Below, in pieces: positions 1-33,917 of a stretch of 64,000 nt of DNA; position 1 is the stretch's first letter, and every line of letters begins with the position of its first letter. The position numbers and the translations under genes were made by a program. The DNA comes from Patescibacteria group bacterium (GTDB lineage: Bacteria; Patescibacteriota; Minisyncoccia; Phycocordibacterales; PALSA-1337): the NCBI GenBank assembly GCA_028865095.1, contig JAGWLA010000001.1, forward strand, positions 137,806 to 201,805, read 5' to 3'. Below the pieces are notes generated by a model. The model was given only the letters and a program-made list of their open reading frames with translations, was not told the DNA's origin and did no database searches.

Positions 1-447
1 GCGGCCGGCATCATCCCGCGCCTCATCGACATGGGCGTCGACCCGTACCTCATCGCCCCGACCCTCATCCTCGGGGTCGCCCAGCGCCTGGTGGGCATGC
101 TGGTGCCGGAAGCGTCGGAGCCCATCCCCGTCGACGGGAGCATCAAAGCCATGATCGACCGCCAGTTCACCGACCTTCCGCCCGAATTCAAGAAGGACGT
201 GCCGTTCTCCGACACCGTCTATCGCATCAAGCCGTCGTCCCAGTCGCCCCGCGGCACCCGCGGCCGCATGGCAGTCATGGAGATGTTCCTGATGGACAAG
301 GAGATCGAGCAGGCCATCCTCAAAGACCCGACCGAATCGGAGATCAACCGCATCGCCCGGTCGAAAGGCATGATCACCATGAAGGAAGATGCCATCATCA
401 AGGCGTTCCAGAAGAAGATCCCCATCGAGGAAGTGAATAAACTGTAG
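1..447 (+). CDS. pilB: Type IV pilus assembly ATPase PilB/GspE, C-terminal fragment (5' end outside window)
   Basis: The ORF runs in from the window start. The C-terminal region has GspE/PilB-like conserved blocks, and it sits immediately upstream of pilT/pilC. Confidence 0.7.
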   Translation, partial: AAGIIPRLIDMGVDPYLIAPTLILGVAQRLVGMLVPEASEPIPVDGSIKAMIDRQFTDLPPEFKKDVPFSDTVYRIKPSSQSPRGTRGRMAVMEMFLMDKEIEQAILKDPTESEINRIARSKGMITMKEDAIIKAFQKKIPIEEVNKL

Positions 448-459
448 TATACTATCAGC

Positions 460-852
460 ATGCCCAAGAAGATCCTCATCGTAGACGACGACAAGTTCCT
501 CCTCGACATGTATACCTTGAAATTCTCCAAGGCCGGCTATGACGTCAAGACGTCCGATTCCACCGAAGGCGGCCTGGCCCTTCTCCGGGGAGGGTATGTC
601 CCCGACATCATGCTCAGCGACATCGTCATGCCGGGCCTCGACGGCCTCGAGCTGGTCGCGGCCATCAGGAAAGAGAGCCTCATCCCGGGCGCGGTCATCA
701 TCATGCTCACCAACCAGGGCGGCTCGGACGACGTGGCTCGCGCCAAGAAGCTCTCCGTCGACGGCTATATCGTCAAAGCCACCACCATCCCGTCGGAGGT
801 CCTGACCGAGGTCGAGAAGATCTGCGCCTCGAAGGCCCATCCCGCATCATAA
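460..852 (+). CDS. Stand-alone response-regulator receiver domain (CheY-like, PilH/PilG-type)
   Basis: 130 aa. N-terminal acidic DDD pocket, phospho-acceptor Asp in SDIVMPGLDG, conserved Thr/Lys region, and no output domain. Confidence 0.8.
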   Translation: MPKKILIVDDDKFLLDMYTLKFSKAGYDVKTSDSTEGGLALLRGGYVPDIMLSDIVMPGLDGLELVAAIRKESLIPGAVIIMLTNQGGSDDVARAKKLSVDGYIVKATTIPSEVLTEVEKICASKAHPAS

Positions 853-856
853 CGCC

Positions 857-1915
857 ATGGACTACAAGAAAGAGATACAAGACCTGGTCGATCTGATCCT
901 CAAGGAAGGGGCGTCCGACCTGCACCTCTCGGTCGGCCGCACGCCTATCATCAGGGTCTCCGGCAACCTCATCCCGCTCGTCAAGAAGCCGATCCTCACC
1001 GACAAGGACCTCCAAGGCTTCTCGGACGTCTTCCTGTCGGAGGACAGCAAGGAGATCCTCAAGAGGGAGAAGGACGTCGATTTCTCATATAACCTCATCG
1101 CCTCGCGCTTCCGCGGCAACGCCTATTTCCGCCAAGGGTCGCTTTCCATCGCCCTGCGCCTCATCCCCAAGTCGATTAGGACCCTGGCCGAGCTCAATCT
1201 GCCGCCGATCCTCGAGTCCTTCACCCGCAAGCAGCAAGGGTTCTTCCTGGTGGTGGGCCCCATCGGACAGGGCAAGACCACCACCTTGGCCACGCTCATC
1301 GAGATGATCAACCAGACCCGCACCGAGCACATCCTGACCATCGAAGACCCCATCGAATACCAGTTCGAATCCAAGAAGTCGATCATCGACCAGCGGGAGG
1401 TGCGCATCGACACCCCTGATTTCCATAACGCCCTCATCGCCATGTTCCGCGAGGACATCGACGTCTGCATGGTCGGCGAGATGCGCGACAACATGACCAT
1501 ATCCACCGCCGTGACCGCCGCCGAGACGGGCCACCTCATCTTCTCGACCCTGCACACCAACGACGCGTCCCAGACCATCAACCGCATCATCGACTCCTTC
1601 CCGTCGAACCAGCAGGACCAGATACGCGTCCAGCTGGCGGGATCGCTCTCGGGCATATTCTCTCAGCGCCTCATCCCGCGCATCTCCGGCGGCCTCGTCC
1701 CGGCGTACGAGCTCCTCATCAACAACAACGCGGTCTCCAACCTCATCCGCGAGAAGCGCATCCATGAGATCGACACGGTCATCGAGACCAGCTCGCAGGA
1801 AGGGATGGTCGACTTGAACCGGTCTCTGGCCGAGCTCGTCAGGTCGGGGGAGATCACGGTGGAGAGCGCGTACACCAACTCGCTGAACCCCAAGACCCTG
1901 GAGAGGATGATATAG
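857..1915 (+). CDS. pilT: Twitching motility ATPase PilT
   Basis: 352 aa. Walker A GPIGQGKTTT, PilT-type His/Asp boxes, and conserved neighbourhood next to pilB/pilC. Confidence 0.9.
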   Translation: MDYKKEIQDLVDLILKEGASDLHLSVGRTPIIRVSGNLIPLVKKPILTDKDLQGFSDVFLSEDSKEILKREKDVDFSYNLIASRFRGNAYFRQGSLSIALRLIPKSIRTLAELNLPPILESFTRKQQGFFLVVGPIGQGKTTTLATLIEMINQTRTEHILTIEDPIEYQFESKKSIIDQREVRIDTPDFHNALIAMFREDIDVCMVGEMRDNMTISTAVTAAETGHLIFSTLHTNDASQTINRIIDSFPSNQQDQIRVQLAGSLSGIFSQRLIPRISGGLVPAYELLINNNAVSNLIREKRIHEIDTVIETSSQEGMVDLNRSLAELVRSGEITVESAYTNSLNPKTLERMI

Positions 1916-1924
1916 AACACCGCC

Positions 1925-3139
1925 ATGCTATTCACCTACCAAGCCCTCGACGGGGCAGGATCGAAGAAAGAAGGCTCCATCGACGCCATCAACGTCGACG
2001 TCGCCATCTCCTCGCTGCAGCGCCGCGGCTTGGTCATCACCACCATCAAGGAAGCCGGCCAAGGCGGCTCCATCCTCTCCAAGAACATATCGTTCTTCGA
2101 CCATGTGTCCACCAAGGACGTGGTCATCCTCTCCCGGCAGCTGGCCACTTTGTTCGAGGCCCAGATATCGGCCCTCCGCGTCTTCCGCCTGATCGGCGGC
2201 GAGACGGAGAACAAGGTCCTCGGCGCCAAGCTGGAGACCATCGCCGACGACCTCCAGGCGGGAAGCTCCATATCGGCCGCCTTGGCCAAGCACCCGAAAG
2301 TCTTCGACGATTTCTACGTGTCCATGGTCAAGGCCGGCGAAGAGTCGGGCAAGCTCAACGACACCTTCCTCTATCTGGCCGACTACCTCGACCGCACCTA
2401 CGAGCTCACTTCCAAGGTCCGTGGCGCCCTCATATATCCGGCGTTCGTGGTGGTCACTTTCTTCACGGTCATGGTCCTCATGTTCACCATGATCATACCG
2501 AAGATAAGCCCCATCCTGGTCCAGTCGGGCGCCACCATCCCCGTCTACACCCAAGTGATCATCGGCATGTCCAACTTCATGGTGTCGTACGGCTTCGTCC
2601 TGCTGGCGGTCGCCATCGTCGGCGGCTACTTCCTCTTCCGCTTCGTCAGGACGCCGGCCGGGCGCGCCGCGTACGACCGGTTCAAGCTGTCGGTCCCGTA
2701 TGTGAGCAGCCTCTACCGCAAGCTCTATCTGGCGCGCTTCGCCGACAACATGAACACCATGCTGGCGTCGGGCATCCCGATGGTGCGCGCCCTCGACCTG
2801 ACGTCGAACGTCATCAGCAATACCGTCTACAAGCAGATCCTGACCGACGCCACCGAGGCGGTCAAAGGCGGCCAGACCCTTTCCGACTCTCTCTCCAGCC
2901 ACCCGAAGGAGATGCCGGGCATCATGACCCAGATGATGAGAGTGGGCGAAGAGGCCGGAGAAGTCGGGTCCATCCTGAAGACGGTGGCCAATTTCTATAC
3001 CAGGGAAGTGGCTACGGCGGTCGATTCGCTGGTCTCGCTCATCGAGCCGGCCATGATCGTCCTCCTCGGCGCAGGCGTGGCTATATTGCTGGCCGCCGTG
3101 CTCGTGCCTATCTATTCCATCGCCTCGTCGACCTCGTAG
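1925..3139 (+). CDS. pilC: Type IV pilus inner-membrane platform protein PilC/GspF
   Basis: 404 aa. Two GspF-like repeats with TM helices, and position after pilT. Confidence 0.9.
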   Translation: MLFTYQALDGAGSKKEGSIDAINVDVAISSLQRRGLVITTIKEAGQGGSILSKNISFFDHVSTKDVVILSRQLATLFEAQISALRVFRLIGGETENKVLGAKLETIADDLQAGSSISAALAKHPKVFDDFYVSMVKAGEESGKLNDTFLYLADYLDRTYELTSKVRGALIYPAFVVVTFFTVMVLMFTMIIPKISPILVQSGATIPVYTQVIIGMSNFMVSYGFVLLAVAIVGGYFLFRFVRTPAGRAAYDRFKLSVPYVSSLYRKLYLARFADNMNTMLASGIPMVRALDLTSNVISNTVYKQILTDATEAVKGGQTLSDSLSSHPKEMPGIMTQMMRVGEEAGEVGSILKTVANFYTREVATAVDSLVSLIEPAMIVLLGAGVAILLAAVLVPIYSIASSTS

Positions 3140-3264
3140 CGGGGGCGGGTAGCAGATTATCCACAGGCTCATATGGACGGCGTGCGGCCATGATATAATG
3201 GTCACAACCATATAAATGGCCAAAGTCACTTATTAGTTGAGTCATTAATAGCACAAGAATACTT

Positions 3265-3750
3265 ATGAAATTGAAGAATATAAGGAGAGGTTTCACCCTC
3301 ATCGAATTGCTCGTCGTCATCGCCATCATCGGCATATTGGCGTCCATCGTCTTGGTGTCGCTGAACAGCGCGAGGACCAAGGGCACTGATGCTCGTGTTG
3401 TCTCCGATGTACAGGAGATGCGCACGTGGCTTGAGACTCAGTATAATGGTTCGGGTTATCCTCTTAACGGAACGACGGTGGCTTGCAATGGCATTGCAAA
3501 CAGCAACACGACGGCGACATTCGCGGCTTGCGTGAATTCGCCTGACGCCAACGCCAATGCTCTTAATGCCGATGCGAATACAGAGAGCGGCGGTCACCCG
3601 TTGTATATCTCCGTCGGCAATAATGGAAGCTCGTATGCTGTCCGTGGATATCTTCAAGCGACGAGTAAGTATTTCTGCATCGATTCTACCGGAGCGGCCA
3701 ACCAGAGTGATAGTGGCAGCAATGCATCGGCAGCAGCTAGGTGTCAATAG
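3265..3750 (+). CDS. Type IV major pilin (prepilin, class III signal)
   Basis: N-terminus RRGFTLIELLVVIAIIGILASIVL with G/F cleavage-methylation motif and Glu+5. A TATAAT box lies upstream. Confidence 0.85.
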   Translation: MKLKNIRRGFTLIELLVVIAIIGILASIVLVSLNSARTKGTDARVVSDVQEMRTWLETQYNGSGYPLNGTTVACNGIANSNTTATFAACVNSPDANANALNADANTESGGHPLYISVGNNGSSYAVRGYLQATSKYFCIDSTGAANQSDSGSNASAAARCQ

Positions 3751-3786
3751 CATCGTTCTGACGGTCTAAACTGTCGGCGATTCCAA

Positions 3787-3815
3787 CAAAACCCCTGCAA
3801 GGGGTTTTGTTTTTA
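3787..3815 (+). terminator. Rho-independent terminator after pilin gene
   Basis: Hairpin aaaaccccTGCAaggggtttt followed by a T-run. Confidence 0.75.
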
Positions 3816-3840
3816 GCGCCGAGATGCTAGATTTGTAGGC

Positions 3841-6249
3841 ATGTCCCATCAGATCAAGGCGGCGAAGCTCTCGGTCATCGTCCCCGTCTTCAACGAGAGA
3901 GGGACGATCAGGGAAGTGATAGCGAAAGTCATCTCTGCCCGACTGCCCGATGGGTGGACGAGAGAAGTGATCGTTGTCGATGATGCCTCTCACGACGGCA
4001 CCCAAAATGTCCTTAAAGGCCTCGTTGGATGCACCATATCCTATTCGCGATTCAATGGCGGGAAAGGGGCGGCGCTTAAAGAAGGATTAAGGATCGCGAC
4101 AGGGGATTATATCCTCATACAAGACGCCGATCTAGAATATGACCCGGATGATTATGAAAAGCTGCTCCAGCCTATCATCGATGGCAGGGCAGACGCGGTC
4201 TTCGGGTCGCGCACTCTCGGAAAGAACAACAAGGTTCCCTTGAAGAGGATATATTTCTATGGAGGCTTGCTCATCAATAAGATATTTAATGCCCTTTTTG
4301 GGACGAGGGTGAGCGACGTGGCGACGTGCTACAAAATCTTCTCTCGCGGGCATGCCGACGAGATCTTGAAACTGCCGGCAAACGACTTCGTGTTCGATGT
4401 CGTCGAGCTGTCTTATTATCTGACAAGTCATACGCATATCGTTGAGGTTCCGATCCGTTATGAGCCGCGCGGAGGGACAGAAGGGAAGAAGATGGGTTGG
4501 CGCCATGGTTGGCGTTGTTTTAGGAGGATGCTGTCTCTCTATATCGATCAGAGGAGCTGGATGCCGGCCTTCCTCTCTTTTGCCGTCTTCTTTGCCGTCT
4601 TCTTTGCAGTGTATTTCTCGGTGAGCACGCTCTCGAGCGGCGACGATCACTTCTTCCATTTCAGGTTCGCCCAAGAGATGCTGTCCCATGGCTTTTTCGG
4701 ATCTTTCCAAGATTTCAAATCGATCTATTTTTCCCAGATGGCGCATGGCAATTCATATTTCATGTATTACAATTTCATCTTTTATGTCGTCGCCATCCCG
4801 TTCACCTTTATCACCCCTCTGTATCTAGGGATAAAGCTTTATGCCGTCTTGATTGCGGCAGCTGCGTTCACCTTGCTCTACTGGTGCCTTAAGAGGTTCG
4901 ACATACGCTATCCGTTCGTATGGACTCTCGTCATCCTCTCGATCACTAGTACGGCATCGCTCTGGAGATTTTTTCTCTCAAGGCCGTATGCGCTCGCCCC
5001 ATCCATCCTTCTGCTCCTTCTTTATTTCCTGTATCGCAAAAACCATGTCGGCGTCGCGATCGTGAGCTTTGCGTATCTTTTCTGGCACAGCTCGACGTTC
5101 TTTATGCCGATATGCGTTGCCGTTGCATATTACATAATCGAAAAGTTCTATCGGAACAAGGGCGACTGGAAGAACCTGGCGTGTGCAATCGGGGGGACAA
5201 TGGCAGCGATCGGCGCCACTTACCTCGTTTCAGGCGGATTTCTCATCTTCATATGGCAGACGCTCGTGAAGATCTATTGGCAGACGATCTTGGGGCATGC
5301 CGTCAAAATATCAGAGGGGGGAGAGCTGTATCCGATCGATTTCTTCAATTTCATCCAGACAAACGCTCTTATCTTTGCCGCATTCGTGACAGCTTTGTCG
5401 GTAGATATATTCAGCTACGTGGCCTATAAGACGGGGCGGTCCCCTTCAGACGATTATTTTGCCGATGCGCCAGCGCCTCGGCGTCACCTTCAATCAACGG
5501 TGCTATTCCTGACGGCGGGGTTCTTCCTGGGGACGGTGGCGGTCAGCGGCAGATTCGGAGATTATTTCACGTTCTTTGCCGCGCTCTATATAGCATTATC
5601 GTTCGATTATGCTCGCAGGCTCGTCGTCATATCCGGCGGGTCGCTGATCCGGCAGAGCCTCGGCACCGGGCTTGCGATCGTTCTCGCCTATCTTTTTTTG
5701 AGCAATATGCTGTTTCTTCAACAAAGGATCGCCTACGGCCAATCGCCGCTCGAATTCTATCAAGTCGGATCGTGGCTGAAAGAGAATTCGAAGCCTGGCG
5801 ACATAGTGTTCGAGGCTAATTGGAGCTGGTTCCCGCAGCTGTACTATTGGAGCCCGGATGATTATTACAGCGCCGGTCTTGAGCCAAGGTTCATGTATGA
5901 TTACAACCCAGCGCTTTATTGGGAATCAGTTCACATCGCGCAAGATGGTTATGTGTGCGCCCAGCAGGAATGCCCTGACCTCGAAGCCGCCCGTTCCAAA
6001 GCTTTATCAGGAGCGACGACTACTTTGGAGTGGGCCAAGCGCCAAGGTGATGCCATAGCGTCCGCGCTACGGAATGACTTCCACGCCTCGTATATAGTTT
6101 CTTCGAAGGATTATCGCTTTTTCGATTACATTCTTTCCAATAACTCCCATTTCAAACTGGGCCTGTATAATGACCAATTCGGCAATGAGGTATTCACAGT
6201 GTCTACCAGTTCGGTCATAGCTATGCCTGATGCAAGGAACAGGAAATGA
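3841..6249 (+). CDS. Fused glycosyltransferase: N-terminal GT2 (polyprenol-phosphate sugar synthase, GtrB/Dpm1-like) plus C-terminal polytopic GT-C-like membrane transferase
   Basis: 802 aa. The N-terminal ~230 aa carry GT2 motifs ([22 protein letters not shown]). The remaining ~570 aa have more than 10 predicted TM helices, typical of GT-C/ArnT/PMT-like enzymes. Confidence 0.65.
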
Positions 6250-6671
6250 CCGAGGCTGCTAAAGACATGTTCGGACGGATACATGCCCGCTTCAGCCGGG
6301 TAGTCAGGTTCGTGTCATCGGGAGCAGTCGGTGCCGCTATCGATCTCGGTTTGTTGTTCTTGTTCGTGCGCGTGATGGATGCGTGGTATCTGCCTTCCGC
6401 TGTGGTCGCATTCGTTCTCTCATACGCTGTCAGCTTTATATTGCAGAAGTTCTGGACATTCAGAGAGCGCTCGATGGAGCGCGCTCACGTCCAGGCCTCC
6501 TCCTATCTTCTGTTGGCCCTAGCGAATCTGGTCCTTAACACCCTGCTAATGTACGCTCTCGTTACCGGAATCGGTTTGGAATACCTCGCAGCCCAAATAA
6601 TAGCCAGCGCCATCATAGCGGTCGAGAGTTACGCATTCTATAAGTTGATATTCAAAGTACCCGTTGCTTGA
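6246..6671 (+). CDS. GtrA-family membrane protein (polyprenol-sugar flippase-associated)
   Basis: 141 aa with 4 TM helices and GtrA-like conserved blocks. It overlaps the upstream stop by 4 nt (ATGA). Confidence 0.7.
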
Positions 6672-6692
6672 CGTATCTGCTATAATTTAGCA

Positions 6693-7208
6693 ATGAAAAA
6701 AGGCTTCACCCTCATCGAATTGCTCGTCGTCATCGCCATCATCGGCATATTGAGCTCGATCATATTGGTCAACCTCGCGTCGTCCCGCGCCAAAGCCAGG
6801 GATGCCCAGAGGGTGTCGGATATAGGGCAGATACAGCTGGCGCTCTCCCTTTATTACGACCGGTGCGGCCAGTATCCTCCTCCGCATTCGGGCAAGATCG
6901 ACAGCACCGTGCTCGCCGAGAGCACGGGCTGCCCGAGCGGGAGCGGGATCAGCCTCCAGTCGTTCATATCGCAGATACCGATGTCTCCTGCCGGAGGGAG
7001 CCTGTCCGCGGCTCCTTACGACTATGTCGCCAACAGCTCCGACTCCGACTATGTCCTCCATTCTTCTTTGGAATATAGCAGCTCCGCCCAGGCGAACAGC
7101 TTCTCCGAGACGAGCCGCGCGTCCGCTCCGTATTCGTCGTGGGCTACCGGCTTCTCGTGCTATGACGCCGCCAGCCATCAGACGGAGTACTGCGTCACTT
7201 CACGATAG
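6693..7208 (+). CDS. Type IV pilin (second prepilin gene)
   Basis: N-terminus KKGFTLIELLVVIAIIGIL, identical in its first ~20 mature residues to the pilin at 3265. Confidence 0.85.
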   Translation: MKKGFTLIELLVVIAIIGILSSIILVNLASSRAKARDAQRVSDIGQIQLALSLYYDRCGQYPPPHSGKIDSTVLAESTGCPSGSGISLQSFISQIPMSPAGGSLSAAPYDYVANSSDSDYVLHSSLEYSSSAQANSFSETSRASAPYSSWATGFSCYDAASHQTEYCVTSR

Positions 7209-8006
7209 ATGACCGATCTCGCCATCCCGCTCATCCTGGCGTTCTGCTTCGGGGCCGTCATCGGGAGCTTCCTGAATGTCGTATCGCTCCGCTTCAACAC
7301 CGGCGTCGGCCTCGGCGGCCGGTCGAAATGCATGTCCTGCGGGAACCAGCTCTCCTGGAAGGAGCTCATACCGATCGCCAGCTTCATGGCCCAGAAGGGC
7401 GCCTGCAAGAAGTGCCGCGCCCGGATCTCGTGGCAGTATCCGCTGGTAGAATTCGCCGCCGGCGCCATATTCGTGCTCGTCATATACCGCTTCCCGCCGG
7501 CATCGTATCTCGCCGCGCTGACGACCTTCATATATCTCACGGCCACCAGCCTGCTCCTGGTCATCGCCGCCTATGACGTGAAGCATAAGATCATCCCCGA
7601 CCGCTTCGTCTGGGCGTTCGACGCCCTCGCTCTGGCGAGCGTATTCGTGGGAGGCCAGTCATGGCTGCACGCGCCGCATTGGTGGACTCTGGCGGCCGGC
7701 CCGCTCCTGGCTCTGCCGTTCGCCCTGCTCTGGCTGGTCTCCAAAGGCTCGTGGATGGGATTAGGCGACGCCAAGCTCGTCCTCGGCCTCGGGTGGCTCC
7801 TCGGCATGGATGGGGGAGCGAACGCGCTGGTCTGGGCTTTCTGGATAGGGGCTGCGGCCAGCGTGGCGTGGATGCTCGTCGTCCGCAAGCGCTTCAAGGC
7901 CAAGGCGGAAGTGCCCCTCGGCCCGTATCTCATCATCGGCTTCTACCTCGTCCTCCTCTTCGGCTGGCAGGCCATCGACCTGCGCATGCTGGCGCAGCTC
8001 TTTTGA
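7209..8006 (+). CDS. pilD: Prepilin peptidase / N-methyltransferase PilD (A24 family)
   Basis: 265 aa. CxxC...CxxC zinc motif (CMSCGN...CKKCR) and a polytopic membrane protein. ATG directly abuts the pilin stop. Confidence 0.9.
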   Translation: MTDLAIPLILAFCFGAVIGSFLNVVSLRFNTGVGLGGRSKCMSCGNQLSWKELIPIASFMAQKGACKKCRARISWQYPLVEFAAGAIFVLVIYRFPPASYLAALTTFIYLTATSLLLVIAAYDVKHKIIPDRFVWAFDALALASVFVGGQSWLHAPHWWTLAAGPLLALPFALLWLVSKGSWMGLGDAKLVLGLGWLLGMDGGANALVWAFWIGAAASVAWMLVVRKRFKAKAEVPLGPYLIIGFYLVLLFGWQAIDLRMLAQLF

Positions 8007-8012
8007 GCTATA

Positions 8013-8624
8013 ATGGAGGGGATGAATCGCGGCTTCACCCTCATCGAGCTCCTCGTATCGCTGGCCATATTCGCCCTGATGACCGCCCTCGTCGTGGCGA
8101 AGTTCGGCAATTTCAATCAGAGCACCCTCCTCACCGACACGGCGTATGACGTGGCCTTGGCCCTCCGCACGGCCCAGTCGTACGGGCTGTCCGTCAAGAA
8201 TTCGACGGCGGGCAGCCCCGCATTCAGCTATCCGTACGGCATCGATTTCAACAGCACAGCGACCGGCGCAGCATGCGATTCGTACACGTCGACCGATCAG
8301 CTCTTCGTGCTCTTCGCCGATAAGGATTCGAATCACTTGTGCGGCTCGGGCGACCTGGGCATCAGCACGTATGCGCTCACCCGCGGGGCATACATCTCCT
8401 ATCTCTGCGCGGGGAGCGATCAGGCGACATGCCATTCCAACCCGGCCATAACCTCTCTCGACATCTCATTCCAGAGGCCCAATCCCGAGGCGTCCATCTG
8501 CAGCAGCGGCTTCAACCCGGCCTGCAGCTATGCCTATGCCGAGATCACGGTCACGAGCAATGACAAGTCGAATAGCCGCACCATATCCGTCCGGCAGAAC
8601 GGCCAGATAACCGTATTAAAATGA
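8013..8624 (+). CDS. Minor pilin / pseudopilin (GspH/FimT-like)
   Basis: N-terminal RGFTLIELLVSLAIFALM prepilin motif. Confidence 0.75.
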   Translation: MEGMNRGFTLIELLVSLAIFALMTALVVAKFGNFNQSTLLTDTAYDVALALRTAQSYGLSVKNSTAGSPAFSYPYGIDFNSTATGAACDSYTSTDQLFVLFADKDSNHLCGSGDLGISTYALTRGAYISYLCAGSDQATCHSNPAITSLDISFQRPNPEASICSSGFNPACSYAYAEITVTSNDKSNSRTISVRQNGQITVLK

Positions 8625-9337
8625 GCAGAGCGCACGCATACAAGGAGCGATCGAAGGGCTTTCGGACCAAGGGCGGCTTCACCCTCATCGAGATCGTCGT
8701 GTCGCTGGCCATATTCGCCATCGTGGCCATGGTCGCTTTGTCGGCATTGGTCAAGATCATGGACGCCAACAAGAAAGCTCAGACCATCCAGGACGCCGTG
8801 ACCAGCTTGTCGTACGCCCTCGATTCCATGTCCCGCGAGCTCCGGACCGGGTCCGTCTATTACTGCCAGCCTCTCACGACGGTGTCGCTCTCGAGCCTCG
8901 CGTCCGGCGCGAGCGGCAACATCTCGTCGAGCTGCCAGTCGGGGCTCGATCCGTCGTCGAACGGGGCAGTCATCGCCTTCCTGTCTCCCGCTACCGCGAC
9001 CAGAAGCGACGGCACGAAGTGCAGGCTCGTCTATGCCTATCTCCTGGCGCCGATCGTCTCGGGCGGGGCGACGACCTGGGAGCTCGAGAAGGCGGAGCAG
9101 CAGCCGAACCAGCAGTGCACCGACACGGTCTTCTATAACAGCCCGACCGACACCAATTTCGCCCCCATCGTCGACCCGTCTTCGGTCACGATCGACGGCT
9201 ATTACGTGAAAGTGGCCCTGCCGTCGGGCTCGAAGTATCCGCTGGCCACTGTCGGCCTGAAAGGCTACGCCGGCGGGAGCGAGCAGACCAAGACGTATTT
9301 CTCCGTCCAGACCGCGGCGTCGCCGCGCATCCCATAA
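8621..9337 (+). CDS. Minor pilin / pseudopilin
   Basis: N-terminal GGFTLIEIVVSLAIFAIV prepilin motif. 4-nt overlap with the upstream gene. Confidence 0.7.
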   Translation: MSRAHAYKERSKGFRTKGGFTLIEIVVSLAIFAIVAMVALSALVKIMDANKKAQTIQDAVTSLSYALDSMSRELRTGSVYYCQPLTTVSLSSLASGASGNISSSCQSGLDPSSNGAVIAFLSPATATRSDGTKCRLVYAYLLAPIVSGGATTWELEKAEQQPNQQCTDTVFYNSPTDTNFAPIVDPSSVTIDGYYVKVALPSGSKYPLATVGLKGYAGGSEQTKTYFSVQTAASPRIP

Positions 9338-9340
9338 GCC

Positions 9341-9886
9341 ATGAGAGCCATCCAACGACAGCGCGGATTCACCATCATCGAGACCCTCGTGGCCATCACG
9401 GTGCTCATGATCGCCATCGCCGGCCCCTTGGTGATCGCAAGCCAGGGCCTCTTCGGGGCGCAAGCCTCGAAGGACCAGATGATAGCGTCGTATCTCGCCG
9501 AAGACAGCATGGAGACGATCAAGAACATCAAGGACAACGATATCTTCCAGGAGATCGGGTGGGAATCCAACCCTTTGGGGTCCCCGGCCTCTTTCGGCGC
9601 CTGCATATCATCCAATCCTTGCGATATGGGCTCGCTCGACAGCCCTCAGATCATGAGCGGCGCCGATTCATATCCTCTCTATCTGACTGCCAACGGCTGG
9701 TACAGCCACAACGCCGCTTTGGGCGCTAAGACCCCTTTCAGTCGTTACTTCTACACTATCCAACAGCCGTTGAACGGGGGAGTGGATAATAACCAGCTGC
9801 AAGTCACGGTCGTCGTGTCATGGAATGAAGGCCCGACGCCGTACAGCGTGTCTCTATCAAGCCAGATAACCAATTCCACCCGCTGA
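9341..9886 (+). CDS. Minor pilin / pseudopilin (GspI/PilV-like)
   Basis: N-terminal RGFTIIETLVAITVLMIAI prepilin motif. Confidence 0.7.
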   Translation: MRAIQRQRGFTIIETLVAITVLMIAIAGPLVIASQGLFGAQASKDQMIASYLAEDSMETIKNIKDNDIFQEIGWESNPLGSPASFGACISSNPCDMGSLDSPQIMSGADSYPLYLTANGWYSHNAALGAKTPFSRYFYTIQQPLNGGVDNNQLQVTVVVSWNEGPTPYSVSLSSQITNSTR

Positions 9887-9890
9887 TACC

Positions 9891-10478
9891 ATGAGAACCG
9901 ATCTGCGCACAGCCCCGCTTCGCCCGAACCGCTCCGACGGGTATACGCTGCTCTTCGCGGTGCTTACGGCGGCTCTGGTCCTCGGGGTGGCGGTCTTCAT
10001 CCTGGACGTCAGCCGCAAGCAGTATGAGCTGTCGGTCTCCGCCCGCGATTCCATGTATTCGTTCTATGCCGCGGATTCCGGCATCGAATGCGTCGCTGAA
10101 TACGGCGGCACCAACAGCCCGAACGGCGATATCTACTCTTCGTCGACGCCGCCCGCGAGCGTGGCATGCGGGCTGTCCACCGTCACCTCTTTCCCGTGGA
10201 CGCACGTCTCCGACTCTTCCCATGCGAAATATGCGAATGACACCTATAACAACGGGTATGACGAGACCACGTTCAACATAGGCTTCTCTGGCGGCACCTG
10301 CGCGGCGGTGACCATCGACGAATATTACGATTCGAGCCTCAACTATTACGACAACATCCTTTCCAGCGGGTACAACAAGTGCGTGGCCAACGGCGGAGCG
10401 GTGGCCGACCAGCCTGACACGTCCGACCCCACGATCGTCGAGCGCGCCCTTCAGCTGTCGCATACGACCGCTCCTTGA
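9891..10478 (+). CDS. PilX-like minor pilin candidate (atypical prepilin signal lacking Glu+5)
   Basis: N-terminal GYTLLFAVLTAALVLGVAVFIL hydrophobic segment followed by a Cys-containing globular part. It is last in the pseudopilin operon. Confidence 0.45.
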   Translation: MRTDLRTAPLRPNRSDGYTLLFAVLTAALVLGVAVFILDVSRKQYELSVSARDSMYSFYAADSGIECVAEYGGTNSPNGDIYSSSTPPASVACGLSTVTSFPWTHVSDSSHAKYANDTYNNGYDETTFNIGFSGGTCAAVTIDEYYDSSLNYYDNILSSGYNKCVANGGAVADQPDTSDPTIVERALQLSHTTAP

Positions 10479-10526
10479 CGGCGGCGCCGGAGCGCGCCGG
10501 AGCATGCCGCGGCCGCCGCGGCATGA

Positions 10527-12611
<2,085 letters not shown>

Positions 12612-20190: not shown

Positions 20191-20265
20191 TGGTTGCGGG
20201 GGCCGGAATCGAACCGGCAATTTTCAGGTTATGAGCCTGACGGGTTACCGTTACCCTACCCCGCG
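20191..20265 (-). tRNA. Initiator tRNA-fMet (CAT)
   Basis: CGCGGGG...CCCCGCA-A with a C1:A72 mismatch, anticodon loop CTCATAA, T-arm GCCGGTTCGATTCCGGC, and an encoded CCA. Confidence 0.8.
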
Positions 20266-20338
20266 ATGGTGTCTCCCCATTTTGCCATATTGGAACCCAT
20301 TGTGCAAGCTCTGCTTTTATGCGATATTACCTCGTGAC

Positions 20339-20412
20339 GCCGGTGTAGCTCAGGCAGTTAGAGCGAGGGACTCATAAGCCCTAGGTCGCAGGTGCAAGTC
20401 CTGCCGCCGGCA
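20339..20412 (+). tRNA. tRNA with CAT anticodon (elongator Met or Ile2-lysidine type)
   Basis: Acceptor GCCGGTG/CGCCGGC and anticodon loop CTCATAA. It resembles Ile2 (LAU) tRNAs. Confidence 0.75.
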
Positions 20413-20461
20413 CACTTTGTTTTTCGCCGGATTTCTGGTACATTGATGTCCGTGCCTGTTT

Positions 20462-20535
20462 GCGCCCGTAGTTCAGCTGGCTAGAACGCTCCCCTGTCAC
20501 GGGAGAGGTCGTGGGTTCGAGTCCCATCGGGCGCG
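20462..20535 (+). tRNA. tRNA-Asp (GTC)
   Basis: Cloverleaf with anticodon loop CTGTCAC and T-loop TTCGAGT. Confidence 0.85.
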
Positions 20536-20552
20536 CCGTTCGTTGCAATATG

Positions 20553-20624
20553 CCGATGTAGCTCAGCTGGTAGAGCATTCCCATGGTAAGGGAAAGGTCC
20601 CCGGTTCAATCCCGGGCATCGGCT
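20553..20624 (+). tRNA. tRNA-Thr (GGT)
   Basis: Acceptor GCCGATG/CATCGGC and anticodon loop ATGGTAA. Confidence 0.8.
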
Positions 20625-20655
20625 CCGTATCGTCGCAGCCGCGGGAGCGGCGCAT

Positions 20656-20728
20656 GCCACCTTAGCTCAGTTGGTAGAGCATCCCCTTCGTAAGGGGAGG
20701 GTCCCCGGTTCAAGCCCGGGAGGTGGCT
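20656..20728 (+). tRNA. tRNA-Thr (CGT)
   Basis: Acceptor GCCACCT/AGGTGGC and anticodon loop TTCGTAA. Confidence 0.8.
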
Positions 20729-20747
20729 CAAGGGAAGGGGGAAAGCA

Positions 20748-26915: not shown

Positions 26916-26989
26916 TGCGGGATCGTCTAATGGTAGGACAACGGACTCTGAATCCGTTTATCTTGGTTCGAATCCAAGTCCCGCAGCCA
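26916..26989 (+). tRNA. tRNA-Gln (CTG) with encoded CCA; integration target of the island
   Basis: Acceptor TGCGGGA/TCCCGCA, anticodon stem ACGGA/TCCGT, loop CTCTGAA, T-loop TTCGAAT. Confidence 0.85.
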
Positions 26990-27023
26990 ACACATGCACC
27001 CTGACCGGAGAGGGTCAATGAAC
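26985..27023. repeat. attL: 39-bp direct repeat overlapping the tRNA-Gln 3' end
   Basis: agccaacAcatgcaccctgaccggagaGggtcaatgaac; 37 of 39 positions match the copy at 51449-51487. Confidence 0.8.
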
Positions 27024-27069
27024 CGATTTTGGTTCTAGACCAAGACCTGTTGATGTGTAAACTATAATC

Positions 27070-27870
27070 ATGACTATCATATGGAAAGATTTTTCATCGT
27101 GGGATGGTATTGTCCGTACCACTATCACACCCGCTAGTGTTTTAGAAGTTATATCAAAAATGAAGCGAGCAGGGGAAGGTGGCTATGTCCAAGATGATCC
27201 CGGATGGCTTCATCCCCTAGAAAACCATCTCGGATATCCAATCAAAGATGCAATAAATAATCTGGCGAATGCGTTAGAAAGAGAAAATATCCGTGTATAT
27301 CATGGTTGCCGTCCGATAGACATTAGCTCATACCTGTCAAAAGGTTTGAAAGTTCATAGACGTAATGAATTGATCAGTGAGCTCAGGAAGATGGTCATGT
27401 CTGATACAAGATTGTCTCGATTTGATTTAGATGGACGAATCGGTGAGGTCAAAAAATCATACGATAATGGCAAACTTTTCCTCGTGTTTGATGATCGATA
27501 CATGATTGAATATGCAGGGCACTATCTGATATATGGTGGCGAATACATAGCAAATGTGCTCAGAGATCATTTGGAAGTTTTGCTCGAAAAAGGGACACCG
27601 ACGATAATCACTGTTGATTTGCCTGGCCGTATGATATCTAGACCAATCCTTGAAGGATTTGCTAAAGATCTTCTTACAGAGTGGACAAGACAAGTAATAA
27701 ATGAGCCAAAGTCAGTCCACATGAGAGACTGTGGTGTTGAGCTTGAATCTGATCTGGATCCGAAATATATAGTTGGTCATGAACATCCGCTGGTTATAAA
27801 AGACCCATGGAATTCTCGTCAGGAATATATTGTTGAGAATAATTGTTGTAGGACTACTCCTCAAGCATAA
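27070..27870 (+). CDS. Hypothetical protein (island-borne)
   Basis: 266 aa, no recognisable motifs. It overlaps the recombinase gene convergently by 17 nt. Confidence 0.4.
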   Translation: MTIIWKDFSSWDGIVRTTITPASVLEVISKMKRAGEGGYVQDDPGWLHPLENHLGYPIKDAINNLANALERENIRVYHGCRPIDISSYLSKGLKVHRRNELISELRKMVMSDTRLSRFDLDGRIGEVKKSYDNGKLFLVFDDRYMIEYAGHYLIYGGEYIANVLRDHLEVLLEKGTPTIITVDLPGRMISRPILEGFAKDLLTEWTRQVINEPKSVHMRDCGVELESDLDPKYIVGHEHPLVIKDPWNSRQEYIVENNCCRTTPQA

Positions 27871-29173
27871 TTTCCTTGTCTTTCATTACGATCTTGCTCC
27901 TGAGCGACTCAAGTATGTGTCGTTTCTCCTCAACCGTTCCTTCTCGTAGGATATACTTCACATACTCTTTCGGATCGGCATTCCTCGACCTCAGCTTCTG
28001 TCCTGCTCCTAGTACACTCTCTTGAAACTTCTGGAATCTATCTATCTCCGCCTTGAGCTTCTTCTTGATACCGATCTTGTCGAGATTGATGCCATCGATC
28101 ATGTTCTCTAGCTGTTTTACGAGTTCCTCCTCGCGCAGGGAAGCATTCTTGCATTCTTTGTCATTGAATCTGGTGCAGGTGTAGTAGACATACCTATTTG
28201 TACCGCCTTTGGCCAGCTTCTTGAACTTCTCGTCGGCGGTGATGCCGGAATTGCAGTAGCCACATCGCATGAGCTTGGTGAAGGCGAACTCTTTCTTTTC
28301 GCCAGTCCTATCTTTGTTGATATCGAGCTTTTGCTGAACCTTGTCGAAGAGCTCCTTGGATATGAGCGGTTCATGCCGGCCCTGATACCATGATTCGCTG
28401 CCTTTCGGGTATTCGAATCTGCCATAGTAGAAGTGATTGCGCAGGATGATGTATATATTGCTCAATGTGAGTAACTTGCCACGCTGCACCCTGAAGTCTA
28501 TCTCCTTGAGCCAGTAGAAGAGCTTTCGCCCGCTCCAGCCGTCATCTGCAACCTTCTCGAATATTTTCTTCACGATCGGTGCTCGCTTGGGATCGGTGTA
28601 TATGATCCCTTTTTCACCAACGAGCTTGCTGTTCAGGTATCCTGTCGGTGCCGGTGCAGGCCAGAGCCCCATCTCACAGCGGATCTTTAGCCCACGCTTC
28701 ACATTAACGCTCTTGTTGTCGTTCTCCAGCTTAGCTTGGCTTCCCAATATCATGAGGAGGAACTTCTCATTGGGGTTATTGGTAAATCGCTGACTGAATG
28801 TCCTGATCTCTTTCAGTTTCCCTTGATCCATGAGGTCGACGATGGATCCTAAGTCTCCGGCGTTGCGGCTTACTCTATCTGGATGCCAGACGAGGATTGC
28901 ATTAAATTTTCCATCCTTGATATCGGCGACCATCTCATTGAACTTCGGTCTTTGCCCGGTATCTTTGGCTGAATGCGCTTCACGCTTGGTATCGACTACG
29001 TTCAAGCCTTCTCGTGTCGCGAGAGCGAGCATCTCGTTTATCTGCGCATCTATCGACAATGCTTGGCGTTCATCTGATTCCGATGATTTTCTGGCATAGA
29101 GGCAATATGACAGGGTAGTTGCGATCTGAGGCTGCCTACCGCCTAGATCTACCCGTGAGGTTGCTTGTTGCAT
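27854..29173 (-). CDS. Large serine recombinase (resolvase/invertase catalytic domain + recombinase domain + zinc ribbon)
   Basis: N-terminus YCLYARKSSESDE with the catalytic Ser, block VWHPDRVSRN, and a C-terminal Cys cluster CGYC...CTRFNDKEC. Confidence 0.85.
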   Translation of the reverse strand: MQQATSRVDLGGRQPQIATTLSYCLYARKSSESDERQALSIDAQINEMLALATREGLNVVDTKREAHSAKDTGQRPKFNEMVADIKDGKFNAILVWHPDRVSRNAGDLGSIVDLMDQGKLKEIRTFSQRFTNNPNEKFLLMILGSQAKLENDNKSVNVKRGLKIRCEMGLWPAPAPTGYLNSKLVGEKGIIYTDPKRAPIVKKIFEKVADDGWSGRKLFYWLKEIDFRVQRGKLLTLSNIYIILRNHFYYGRFEYPKGSESWYQGRHEPLISKELFDKVQQKLDINKDRTGEKKEFAFTKLMRCGYCNSGITADEKFKKLAKGGTNRYVYYTCTRFNDKECKNASLREEELVKQLENMIDGINLDKIGIKKKLKAEIDRFQKFQESVLGAGQKLRSRNADPKEYVKYILREGTVEEKRHILESLRSKIVMKDKEIMLEE

Positions 29174-29287
29174 GATATGTGCCTGTTAGCTGGCATACAT
29201 CAATCAATGCCGCCACCGGTCCTAAGAGTCCAGGAGGGGTAAGTTGGTAACAATTTTTCCAAAACGGCTTTATTTCTAGCCATTTCT

Positions 29288-30838
29288 ATGGTAGAATTTT
29301 TCTTAACTATGGCCACCCTAAACTGGATCGGTAAAGAAGCTGTTGCAAACCACGACAAAGAGGTTCCTTTTAAGTTGTTAGAGAAAGTTCCAAGTGCATC
29401 AGTTGGAAAGGAATCAAAAAATCTCGTAATTCATGGCGATAACCTTGAAGCACTGAAGGCCCTTATGCCTTTTTATCAAGGAAAGATAAAGTGTATCTAT
29501 ATTGATCCGCCATACAATACCGGAAACGAGGGATGGGTATATAACGATAAGGTAAATTCTCCCAAGATACGTGAATGGTTGTCTCAGGTTGTAAAATCAG
29601 ATGACCTGACTAAGCACGATAAATGGTTGTGCATGATGCAACCAAGACTCAAATTGCTTAAGGAGCTACTTTCTGATGATGGTTTTATATTTGTAAGTAT
29701 TGACGATCATGAACAGCAGTATTTATCCCATTTAATGAACGAAATGTTTGGTGAGGGAAATTTCGTTGCTAATTTCATATGGAATCACAGGAAGTCAAGC
29801 CAGAATGATATTGATATATCACTGTCGCATAATTACACCTTTTGTTATGCACGTAACAGATCAAAGTTTAAATTGAATCCTCTTGAAATTGATGGCAGCA
29901 AATTTTCTAACCCAGACAATGATCCAAGAGGTGACTGGGTAGCAGACCCTATGGATGCACCTGCTATTCGAGAAAATTTAATGTATCCAATTACCAACCC
30001 CAAAACAAAAAAAGTCTATTTGCCGCCACCTGGTAGGCATTGGAGGTTTTCAAAGGAGAAGTTCGAGCAAGCTATAAAGGATAATCGTATTTTATTTGGA
30101 AAGACAGGTAATTCTAAACCTCAATATAAGCGGTTTAAAAGCGAAGCGGTACTAAAAGGTACTAATGTTTTTACGATATGGGATGACGTAGGAACTGCAA
30201 CTGAAGGGACACAAGAGCTCATGGATCTTTTTGATGGCAAAAAGGTTTTTGATACACCAAAACCCACTTCATTTATCAAGAAAATTCTCAAATTGGCCTC
30301 AGGAAAAGATTCGATTATCCTAGATTCCTTTGCAGGATCAGGAACTACAGCACATGCTATTTTAAGTCTAAATAGTGAAGAGAAGGGTTCAAATAGGAAG
30401 TTTATTCTTGTCGAAATGGAAGATAAAGTTGCCAGAGATATTACAGCAGCACGCGTTGAACGAGTTATAAAAAAGTATAATTTTGAAGATGGTTTTGAGT
30501 ATTGTGAACTCGCTAAGCCTCTATTCGATAAGGCGGGACAAATAAATGAATCGTGCTCATATGAAGAGCTTGCTTCTTATATCTACTTCACTGAAACACA
30601 AACGAATATCGATAAGAAGGCGATTAAAAACCCATTCATTGGTGAAAGTCACGGTATATCGTATTACCTTGTCTATACTGGCAAAGGAAAAAATGAGATA
30701 AACCGCTCCTCGCTTTCTAAGTTGAAAATAGTTGGTCAAGCAGTTATATACGCGGATCGGTGTCTTGTCGATGAAGATGAACTTAAGGAAAAGGGAATTA
30801 CATTCAAACAGATCCCGTACGAGATAAAAATATACTAA
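29288..30838 (+). CDS. Type III restriction-modification methyltransferase (Mod, N6-adenine)
   Basis: DPPYNTG catalytic motif; AdoMet motif FAGSGTT downstream (beta-class motif order). Confidence 0.8.
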   Translation: MVEFFLTMATLNWIGKEAVANHDKEVPFKLLEKVPSASVGKESKNLVIHGDNLEALKALMPFYQGKIKCIYIDPPYNTGNEGWVYNDKVNSPKIREWLSQVVKSDDLTKHDKWLCMMQPRLKLLKELLSDDGFIFVSIDDHEQQYLSHLMNEMFGEGNFVANFIWNHRKSSQNDIDISLSHNYTFCYARNRSKFKLNPLEIDGSKFSNPDNDPRGDWVADPMDAPAIRENLMYPITNPKTKKVYLPPPGRHWRFSKEKFEQAIKDNRILFGKTGNSKPQYKRFKSEAVLKGTNVFTIWDDVGTATEGTQELMDLFDGKKVFDTPKPTSFIKKILKLASGKDSIILDSFAGSGTTAHAILSLNSEEKGSNRKFILVEMEDKVARDITAARVERVIKKYNFEDGFEYCELAKPLFDKAGQINESCSYEELASYIYFTETQTNIDKKAIKNPFIGESHGISYYLVYTGKGKNEINRSSLSKLKIVGQAVIYADRCLVDEDELKEKGITFKQIPYEIKIY

Positions 30839-30843
30839 CTACC

Positions 30844-33120: not shown

Positions 33121-33122
33121 TT

Positions 33123-33917
33123 ATGAATCCAAGAGGGTGGACTAAAACAGAATTAGAAGAATGGCTCAAGAACCCTCTTACGCAGGAAAGAAAAGGTTTT
33201 GATCTTAAGGCAATAATTCCTCCACACGATGCGGGCAAGAATGATCTCAAAAAAGATTTTTGTGGTTTTGCAAACGGAACGGGCGGTTTTCTCTTTTTCG
33301 GTATCAAAGACGACAAGTCAATAATTGGAATAAATGAGGACAATAATTTTACGACTAGGATAAGTGAAATTGTCACGAAACACATTTTTCCTACAACAAT
33401 ATTATGGGATCTCTGTGCATGTATAAAAGTCGATAGTGGGAAATGTGTTTATGTTATTGAGATTATTGAGAGTCCTTATTGGCAAAAACCTCACGTGTTT
33501 TTCCGCGAAAGCGACGGTCTTTTCATACCCTTGAGGGAGAATGGAAATAAAAGAAACATTACGGATGGTTCTGAACTGAGAAGAATATGTTTAAAGACAG
33601 ACAATTATTATCCAGAATACAATACACACGTCCTTAATATTCTCAGAGAATTGAAAAACAAACCGAGACCATTTTTTAGTCTAACTGATGCTGTTATTAT
33701 TCAAGGGTATAAATCGTTCTTACGTTCCCAGTCTGAGACACAATACGGACAAATTCTTATCGAAATTGAGAACATAGAAATGGCTGTGGCCGAATTGAAC
33801 AAGAAGCATTTTTCAGGAGTTGCGGACGGCAATCCAATTGTTTCTGCAGATCAAGATGGTAAACTCGGCAAGTTGGTCGATGATTTTGTTTCAAACTTTG
33901 GCAGACAAATAATATGA
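33123..33917 (+). CDS. AlbA_2 / Schlafen-like divergent-AAA domain protein
   Basis: ERKGFDLK...DFCGFANGTGGFLFFGIKDD matches the AlbA_2 core (E..EFK...AFANt.GG.L..GV.D). Its start lies 3 nt after the res stop. Confidence 0.55.
   Translation: MNPRGWTKTELEEWLKNPLTQERKGFDLKAIIPPHDAGKNDLKKDFCGFANGTGGFLFFGIKDDKSIIGINEDNNFTTRISEIVTKHIFPTTILWDLCACIKVDSGKCVYVIEIIESPYWQKPHVFFRESDGLFIPLRENGNKRNITDGSELRRICLKTDNYYPEYNTHVLNILRELKNKPRPFFSLTDAVIIQGYKSFLRSQSETQYGQILIEIENIEMAVAELNKKHFSGVADGNPIVSADQDGKLGKLVDDFVSNFGRQII

Follow-up and report, generated by a model that had tools for sequence, protein, structure and literature searches.

In the three-component Gtr systems of Shigella and Salmonella phages, periplasmic glycosylation is carried out by GtrB, GtrA, and a GT-C Gtr* enzyme (PMC11127046). 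Pilins are modified by Pseudomonas aeruginosa TfpW, which O-links D-arabinofuranose (D-Araf) oligomers to Ser/Thr and depends on DprE1/DprE2-type genes (bioRxiv 10.1101/2020.04.19.049825), and by archaeal AglB, which N-glycosylates type IV pilins and archaellins (PMC5131992, PMC2952790). For Patescibacteria, full-text literature searches returned no description of a pilin glycosyltransferase or an oligosaccharyltransferase (OST)-like enzyme, and the one experimental study of type IV pili (T4P) in this group predicts O-glycosylation sites computationally only and asks for their confirmation (PMC11623550). The cassette analyzed here lies in a T4P cluster of an uncultured Patescibacteria genome, within a stretch of 64,000 nucleotides (contig JAGWLA010000001.1, positions 137,806 to 201,805; hereafter the window). 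It comprises a gene for an 802-amino acid protein, in which a glycosyltransferase family 2 (GT2) domain is fused to a membrane domain, and a gene for a GtrA-family protein, together referred to as the module. It is likely that this cassette glycosylates pilins through a linkage of one kind or another, and the narrower reading, an accessory pilin-glycosylation cassette that uses a lipid-phosphate-linked sugar and modifies Asn, is held at slightly less than an even chance.

The T4P cluster occupies window positions 1-12600 on the plus strand, where pilC, prepilin 1, the 802-amino acid open reading frame (ORF), the GtrA gene, prepilin 2, and pilD follow one another in this order (Table 1). pilC forms the upstream and pilD the downstream border of a variable pilin region. 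An earlier note, made from the sequence alone, had placed the cassette correctly, in coordinates and gene order, between the pilins and upstream of pilD, and had recognized three Gtr-type parts at the locus, namely a GT2 lipid-phosphate sugar synthase, GtrA, and a GT-C transferase, with synthase and transferase fused. The 4-nt overlap of the GtrA gene start with the stop of the fusion ORF, which it reported as well, is visible in the sequence as ATGA. Its description of the two prepilins as near-identical does not hold, as only their first 62 residues align in BLASTP, with 56% identity; prepilins 1 and 2 represent separate orthologue classes, both of which recur across related loci. Prepilin 2 is GspG-like and Ser-rich and ends directly before pilD. 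The exact 802-amino acid protein is present in NCBI as ‘MAG: glycosyltransferase family 2 protein [Patescibacteria group bacterium]’.

The N-terminus of the fusion protein was identified as a GT2 domain in a domain search, with residues 11-175 matching PF00535 at E 8e-32, as the earlier note expected, and a DXD motif present as Q-D95-A-D97. The best PDB sequence matches of this domain were DPMS, ArnC, and GtrB, with Pyrococcus DPMS 5mlz at the top (E 3e-13), and Foldseek with the modelled domain returned ArnC, DPMS, and GtrB at E 4e-10. AglJ was the best NCBIfam match (E 2e-31; 109 bits vs a cutoff of 325), and models of PpgS, ArnC, and dolichyl phosphate (Dol-P) hexose transferase matched as well, all below their equivalog cutoffs. 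By sequence and by modelled fold, the domain is closest to lipid-phosphate sugar synthases and not to polysaccharide synthases, and it is predicted to be a cytoplasmic polyprenyl-phosphate sugar synthase. The GtrA protein of the window covers positions 1-115 of the 117 positions of the PF04138 profile and is proposed to act as a flippase or lipid-binding partner.

The remainder of the fusion protein (residues 241-802) had no Pfam match even at E<=10, with no PMT, PMT_2, or ArnT family and no PMT-type MIR domains among the matches, and no NCBIfam family covers it. A 60-sequence profile of its family found nothing among PDB sequences, and hhalign of the family against PglB, with a PglB sequence that was checked against 5ogl and 3aag, gave a probability of 0.3%. 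A Pfam scan of 40 distant family members yielded just weak EpsG matches, in five of them. As all sequence searches on the membrane domain were negative, its fold had to be compared instead. AlphaFold2 models built with family alignments reached a pLDDT of 94.0 and a pTM of 0.90 for the full-length protein, and 94.0 and 0.91 for residues 241-802 (C-domain). The model contains about 13 transmembrane (TM) helices. TM1 is followed by a long first loop, another loop joins helices 467-484 and 509-530, and the protein ends in an alpha/beta C-terminal domain of 170 residues.

Structural comparison of the C-domain gave the paired values 20.2 and 445 for AglB (3waj), followed by Pmt4 (19.4 and 336), STT3B (19.0 and 471), AftA (18.4 and 431), ALG12 (18.4 and 366), DPY19 (17.5 and 455), ArnT (17.1 and 425), and PglB (17.0 and 436). 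The best structural match for the membrane domain was AglB, and the match includes the AglB-type C-terminal domain. Foldseek with the C-domain separated the candidates more sharply, and ranks 1-16 were taken by STT3, PglB, and DPY19 (E 6e-7 to 6e-5), followed by ALG9, ArnT, ALG12, and AftA (E 1e-4 to 6e-4), with Pmt4 only at 9.5e-3. According to the models, the membrane domain is a GT-C by fold, and it comes structurally nearest to OST and DPY19, enzymes that modify proteins, and not to PMT, ArnT, or Emb. The earlier assignment of a fused GT-C transferase stands in as far as the modelled fold carries it and has no counterpart in sequence matches from Pfam, NCBIfam, or the PDB; the GT-C similarity on which the note had made its proposal depend is found in that fold.

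Conservation was examined in 100 aligned family members, down to about 22% identity. D269 is present in 100 of 100 members and D268 is invariant in the 60 closer sequences, both directly after TM1, and the (near-)invariant D269, H273, and K/R275 form one motif in the first loop. Further (near-)invariant positions are K332, R376, R381, R571, and D/E574, as well as G493 and E495 in the TM9-TM10 loop, and W661, F664, Y676, G679, D/E681, P682, and the pair C706/C711 in the C-terminal domain. E495 occurs in 99 of the 100 sequences, within the motif I-S-E-G-G-E495 between model helices 467-484 and 509-530. The conserved charged residues look catalytic and are regarded as a candidate set for catalysis and phosphate binding. 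Because the GT2 domain is N-terminal and predicted to be cytoplasmic, and the number of helices is odd, the first loop and the C-terminal domain are predicted to lie on the outside, which for the C-terminal domain agrees with the conserved C706/C711 pair. After the last helix, the window protein reads V-F-x-x-N-W661-S-W-F-P-x-L-Y-Y-x-S, compared to V-V-T-W-W-D-Y-G-Y-P-V-R-Y-Y-S in PglB. Position 662 is S or N in the subfamily of the window and D in 23 of 40 distant members. This stretch resembles the WWDYG motif when both are equated by their position after the last TM helix, and the likeness is taken as a lead only.

The membrane domain defines a large undescribed sequence family. A word-indexed search retrieved 97 homologues, and 2550 representative clusters came up at E<=1e-3 when the search was made exhaustively with a profile. 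The homologues are about 800 amino acids long with the GT2 domain or about 570 without it; those carrying a name are mostly labelled Patescibacteria or Paceibacterota, and stand-alone homologues with a name are entered as ‘hypothetical protein’. The gene neighbourhoods of 54 related loci, 52 from species-representative genomes and two added, were annotated by phmmer and regular expressions. In 47 of them, a prepilin gene is the direct neighbour of the module. A pilin lies immediately upstream in 45 loci, usually within about 150 bp, and immediately downstream in two further loci, both of which are cut at the upstream end. All loci with sufficiently long flanks have the module between pilC and pilD, among them L017 and L043, whose membrane gene is encoded on the strand opposite to the pilus genes.

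The arrangement of the parts differs among the related loci, with a GT2-GT-C fusion in some and separate GT2 genes upstream or downstream in others. In L018, GT2 is fused to GtrA (PF00535 and PF04138), and the product aligns with DPMS 5mlz across residues 1-345 (E 1e-28), and in some related loci GT2 is fused to an S-adenosylmethionine (SAM)-dependent methyltransferase. By the Rosetta-stone argument, these alternative fusions suggest that the GT2, GtrA, and GT-C parts work together. A separate SAM-dependent methyltransferase gene (PF13489/PF08242) follows the GT-C gene in eight distinct loci and is lacking in the window; the enzyme may methylate the sugar or a lipid-linked intermediate.

Eight more distant homologues were sampled for their context. 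Two of them, at about 25% identity, lie again in T4P clusters beside a pilin, and two others (P0159 and P0237) adjoin arrays of four to six PF18895 pilin genes of the type IV secretion system (T4SS) type, which are VirB2/TrbC-like. One is located near a GtrA gene and a VirB4/TraG-like ATPase, one lies 3 kb from pilM-pilB, and two have no pilus genes nearby. The T4P and T4SS-type neighbours link the family to filament subunits of two unrelated kinds. Outside pilus loci, a branch at 31-33% identity (L047-L049, L054) occurs beside a divergent GT2-methyltransferase fusion. In L048, the one locus of this branch that was scanned, the neighbours are two GH130 mannoside-phosphorylase-like genes, a DedA/VTT protein, a further methyltransferase, and a solute-binding protein. 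As a separate observation, several contigs with a pilus and glycosylation cluster of the Patescibacteria type (L015, L036, L040, L047, L049, P0037, and P0066) have source records labelled Bathyarchaeia, Nitrosopumilus, Bdellovibrionales, or Fimivivens, and these contigs are probably mis-binned.

T4P loci were also sampled independently of the module, by pilC alignment against metagenome contigs, which gave 80 loci with a pilC 50-74% identical to that of the window. In 47 of the 48 loci with enough downstream sequence, pilC is followed by pilin genes and pilD, and the module is present in only one (L069). Inherited synteny as the whole cause of the pilin adjacency was rejected on the basis of the 47 loci that lack the module. 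On a pilC neighbour-joining tree with 84 tips, presence of the module changes at least 15 times. The GC content at third codon positions (GC3) is 0.59-0.63 in prepilin 1, the fusion gene, and gtrA (3265-6671), compared to 0.87-0.91 in pilT, pilC, and pilD, with an intermediate value of 0.78 in prepilin 2. The GC profile of the window dips accordingly at 3000-7000, and a like tendency in many related loci suggests repeated lateral exchange of a pilin-plus-enzyme cassette. From its occurrence in 1 of 48 loci, the changes on the tree, and the GC3 island, the module is a patchily distributed accessory cassette, which is probably exchanged between genomes. The link to pilins drawn in the earlier note is borne out by the adjacency to prepilins in loci that carry the module, set against its rarity among pilC-sampled loci, and the fusion, for which the note had considered an occurrence in non-pilus contexts only, is found in pilus contexts.

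Pilins of the pilC-proximal class were compared between 60 distinct proteins with the module and 82 without it. Asn accounted for 9.3% of residues with the module and 5.9% without, and N-x-S/T sequons occurred at 2.48 and 1.09 per 100 amino acids, respectively (2.3-fold). In contrast, Ser and Thr contents were 11.0 and 11.3% with the module and 11.0 and 10.8% without. Mann-Whitney tests, in which kinship is ignored, gave p ~1e-9 for sequon density and for Asn, and 0.74 for Ser plus Thr. GC content was rejected as the cause of the Asn enrichment, as the sequon and Asn difference is present in each of three locus-GC bins and Lys content is equal. Among the 25 nearest plus/minus pairs by pilC distance, the partner with the module had the higher sequon density in 21 (p 0.0009) and more Asn in 24 (p 1.5e-6), while Ser plus Thr was higher in 11 (p 0.69). 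When pilins were chosen by position, as the first after pilC, sequon densities were 2.72 with and 1.08 without the module per 100 amino acids. Module-positive pilins contain 172 sequons compared to 135.6 expected from within-protein shuffles (z 3.6), and the mirror motif S/T-x-N is depleted in them, with 108 occurrences. No sequon enrichment was found in the pilD-proximal pilin class or in minor pilins. In the window, prepilin 1 carries six sequons (N61, N68, N81, N120, N146, and N153) and four Cys, prepilin 2 carries one sequon, and Ser plus Thr make up 19 and 24% of the two pilins, respectively. Together with the OST-like fold, the Asn and sequon enrichment favours an Asn-linked glycosylation of prepilin 1 over one of Ser/Thr.

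The mechanism proposed below builds on observed features, namely domain identities, the modelled fold, residue conservation, adjacency to pilins, a patchy occurrence, and the correlation with Asn and sequons, and its donor sugar, flipping step, acceptor protein, and acceptor atom are predicted. At the cytoplasmic face, the GT2 domain would move a sugar from a nucleotide sugar to polyprenyl phosphate, a loading step proposed from its homology to DPMS, ArnC, GtrB, and AglJ. GtrA would help to hold the lipid-linked sugar or to flip it to the outer face. Transfer of the sugar to the membrane-anchored prepilin or pilin, before pilus assembly, would then fall to the GT-C half of this polypeptide, in which D269 (first outer loop) and E495 (TM9-TM10 loop) are predicted to lie at the outer face. 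The likeliest acceptor would be Asn in the N-x-S/T sites of prepilin 1, the pilC-proximal candidate major pilin. The reaction would correspond to an OST-like N-glycosylation with a monophosphate-linked donor, as in euryarchaeal AglB and in its use of such a donor also DPY19. In a wider form, the proposal states that Patescibacteria carry a mobile, archaeal-style minimal N-glycosylation pathway for T4P, composed of an AglJ/DPMS-like synthase, a GtrA-family partner, and a hitherto unrecognised AglB/STT3-like OST family without WWDYG, and that this cassette would travel and co-evolve with sequon-rich major pilins. This wider form is possible and is put forward tentatively.

Several points count against an Asn linkage to pilins. 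Bacterial lipid-monophosphate monosaccharide donors typically serve O-linked or glycan modification. The window protein does not have the OST hallmark WWDYG, as its W661-S-W-F lacks the Asp, and Pfam, the PDB profile search, and hhalign detected no sequence homology to any oligosaccharyltransferase. When the conserved Y-N-G-S site is excluded, the sequon excess falls to z 1.8, still with 135 sequons compared to 90 mirror motifs, and this site, the sole recurrent aligned sequon, keeps its Asn while the Ser/Thr at +2 varies. The plus/minus comparisons of pilins are not fully corrected for phylogeny. Finally, the branch of the family outside pilus loci implies that other acceptors exist.

The alternative that survives best is that the GT-C domain O-glycosylates Ser/Thr of the pilin with a lipid-phosphate-linked monosaccharide, which may be polymerised, in the manner of TfpW or of Ppm1/Pmt O-mannosylation. 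Both window pilins are rich in Ser/Thr, the donor type implied by the fused GT2 is that of PMT, TfpW, and Gtr enzymes, and the Asp of the OST motif is absent in the subfamily of the window. TfpW itself is a GT-C encoded beside pilA that needs a GtrA-like protein (bioRxiv 10.1101/2020.04.19.049825), and it was by analogy with TfpW that the earlier note had arrived at O-glycosylation. However, it is Asn and sequons that differ between pilins with and without the module, while Ser plus Thr does not, and the C-terminal domain is of the AglB type, with neither MIR domains nor a Pfam match to PMT, PMT_2, or ArnT. The structural neighbours are N-oligosaccharyltransferases and DPY19, not PMT. O-glycosylation is not favoured on these grounds and is regarded as unlikely, at roughly a one-in-four level of belief.

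A second alternative is that the module modifies a target other than pilins, such as an envelope glycopolymer, a lipid, or other surface proteins, and that the pilin region is merely an insertion hotspot. It would account for the branch that lies away from pilus genes among GH130, DedA/VTT, and solute-binding neighbours, and for those distant members that have no pilus genes nearby; the family is large, its contexts are known for a minority of members, and the low-GC3 island shows that the region accepts foreign DNA. A passive hotspot does not, however, predict that the composition of the adjacent pilin shifts with the presence of the module. The prepilin is abutted in most related loci across fusions, changes in gene order, and inversions, the homologues at about 25% identity recur in T4P clusters or, in two other cases, beside T4SS-type pilin arrays, and the nearest folds are those of protein-modifying GT-Cs (OST and DPY19). 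A non-pilin target is considered rather improbable. Least probable by far is an inactive membrane domain, either a GT-C-like scaffold that has degenerated or a factor in the assembly or anchoring of pili. The lack of a sequence match to any characterised GT-C and the incomplete WWDYG motif could be cited for it. Against it, D269, E495, R381, and R571 stay (near-)invariant in 100 divergent sequences and occupy positions where a GT-C is expected to carry residues for catalysis and phosphate binding, and the association of the domain with a lipid-phosphate sugar synthase is persistent and has repeatedly taken the form of a fusion.

These ultrasmall, host-dependent bacteria attach to other cells and interact with them mainly, as far as is known, by type IV pili, and pilin glycans commonly control adhesion, phage susceptibility, and antigenic variation. 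Pilin glycosylation by the module would mean that a patchy, compositionally foreign cassette alters the chemistry of the major pilin in a lineage without described glycosylation machinery, by means of a family that is invisible to Pfam and NCBIfam and has its fold beside N-oligosaccharyltransferases. Should the Asn linkage prove true, the pilus would be the first of type IV in bacteria with N-linked glycans, the enzyme family, with its more than 2500 sequence clusters, would count as a new group of OSTs, and N-glycosylation of pilins would be shared by Archaea and Bacteria; the compact fused synthase-transferase could then possibly be useful in glycoengineering. The members beside T4SS-type pilin arrays hint at a general decoration of surface filaments. 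The hypothesis is directly testable, as candidate catalytic residues and six candidate acceptor sites are named.

The features of the window and of the related loci are listed in Table 1. Downstream of the minor-pilin genes, the window continues with ligA and gatCA. The hairpin after prepilin 1 folds at -26.4 kcal/mol over 48 nt (z -5.5), and 0 of 200 shuffled sequences fold as well; such a structure would suit a major pilin gene that is strongly expressed while fewer transcripts continue into the genes for the enzymes. A scan for consensus promoters and terminators gave counts near those of shuffled sequence and missed this hairpin. The extended -10 element upstream of prepilin 2 ends 6 nt before the ATG and has no -35 element at normal spacing, and prepilin 2 may be expressed on a leaderless mRNA from its own promoter. 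The stand-alone response-regulator gene keeps its position between pilB and pilT in almost every related T4P locus examined.

Table 1. Coordinates of the T4P cluster, its proposed glycosylation module, and other features in the window, and of selected features in related loci
Feature	Sequence	Position	Strand	Remarks
pilB 3' end	window	start of T4P cluster	+	upstream of response regulator
Response-regulator receiver gene	window	460-852	+	between pilB and pilT
pilT	window	857-1915	+	T4P cluster
pilC, T2SSF platform protein	window	1925-3139	+	Pfam T2SSF E 5.5e-59; GC3 0.89
Prepilin 1, 161 amino acids	window	3265-3750	+	leader MKLKNIRRG/FTLIE (cleavage at slash); N_methyl motif E 1e-9; GC3 0.59
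Intrinsic-terminator-like hairpin	window	3785-3815	+	12-bp stem, then U-run; between prepilin 1 and glycosyltransferase gene
GT2-GT-C fusion ORF, 802 amino acids	window	3841-6249	+	
GT2 domain of fusion, residues 1-240	window	3841-4560	+	PF00535
GT-C-fold (modelled) membrane transferase domain, residues 241-802	window	4561-6249	+	about 13 TM helices and predicted extracytoplasmic C-terminal domain
GtrA-family four-helix membrane protein, 141 amino acids	window	6246-6671	+	PF04138 E 3.5e-23
Extended -10 element TGcTATAAT	window	6678-6686		upstream of prepilin 2
Prepilin 2, 171 amino acids	window	6693-7208	+	leader MKKG/FTLIE; N_methyl E 2.7e-8; TIGR01710 1e-12
pilD prepilin peptidase	window	7209-8006	+	A24_N_bact E 8e-27; Peptidase_A24 3e-10
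Four minor-pilin genes	window	8013-10478	+	N_methyl motif in three
Five-tRNA cluster	window	20191-20729		Met, Met, Asp, Thr, Thr
Probable integrated mobile element or prophage remnant	window	26916-43400		
tRNA-Gln	window	26916-26989		
Large serine recombinase	window	27854-29173	-	mobile element
Terminase-large-subunit-like ATPase	window	39948-41567	-	mobile element
ParB-N and methylase fusion	window	41888-43387	-	mobile element
SAM-dependent methyltransferase	L001	10457-11182		
SAM-dependent methyltransferase	L048	8302-9834		
SAM-dependent methyltransferase	L021	8718-9953		
Non-pilus neighbourhood with GH130 genes	L048	4389-14452		
T4SS-type pilin array	L057	8702-10868		PF18895
T4SS-type pilin array	L059	2633-5823		PF18895

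Outside the T4P cluster, a probable integrated mobile element or prophage remnant lies beside the tRNA-Gln gene. In addition to the large serine recombinase, the terminase-like ATPase, and the ParB-N and methylase fusion, it encodes a DNA methylase, a ResIII helicase, a Schlafen/AlbA_2 protein, a 1210-amino acid protein without a Pfam match, and a DUF5655 protein. The first gene of the five-tRNA cluster, a tRNA-Met gene, is encoded on the opposite strand.

Compared to known systems, the window cassette shares with Gtr the parts (GT2 synthase, GtrA, and GT-C) and the logic of cytoplasmic loading, flipping, and extracytoplasmic transfer. It differs in that synthase and GT-C form one polypeptide and that the sequence family of the GT-C, OST-like in its modelled fold, is undescribed. 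While Gtr is encoded by O-antigen-modifying prophages, the cassette occupies a pilin locus of Patescibacteria, and its acceptor is probably a protein. The closest pilin system to the window cassette is TfpW, compared here by description only. Both have an accessory GT-C gene beside a major pilin gene, a GtrA-like partner, a lipid-monophosphate sugar donor (predicted for the window), and a strain-variable combination of pilin and accessory genes, and the landing of the module among pilin genes is much like that of the pilin accessory genes of Pseudomonas. In contrast to TfpW, the comparative signal is on Asn and not on Ser/Thr, and no DprE1/DprE2-type genes were seen among the part of the window ORFs that was scanned.

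With DPY19 (PDB 7zlg), the membrane domain shares the OST-like GT-C fold, and the proposed function shares protein modification from a Dol-P-linked monosaccharide. DPY19 is, however, a eukaryotic family that C-links mannose to Trp in W-x-x-W, a motif found in neither of the window pilins, and the window domain has no Pfam match. The Pyrococcus furiosus-type DPMS (5mlz) is the best PDB match of the GT2 domain, and the GT2-GtrA fusion of the L018 type matches it at full length, including its TM domain. In the window, by contrast, the GtrA-like TM module is a separate gene and the catalytic domain is fused to the downstream transferase.

The archaeal AglB system provides the best structural match of the membrane and C-terminal domains and, through AglJ, which acts in the Dol-P hexose step, the best NCBIfam match of the GT2 domain, and the type IV pilins that it modifies have their counterpart in the pilins with N-x-S/T sites that would be the substrates here. 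AglB of Euryarchaeota uses a monophosphate lipid donor, as is proposed for the cassette, and the SAM methyltransferase associated with related loci recalls AglP of archaeal N-glycosylation. In contrast to AglB, STT3, and PglB, the window domain has neither sequence homology to these enzymes nor a WWDYG motif, the donor is apparently a monosaccharide, and the host is bacterial. The logic of the system is known; what is new is the GT-C family, the fusion of synthase and transferase, the lineage of the host, and a plausible change to N-linkage in a pilus of bacteria.

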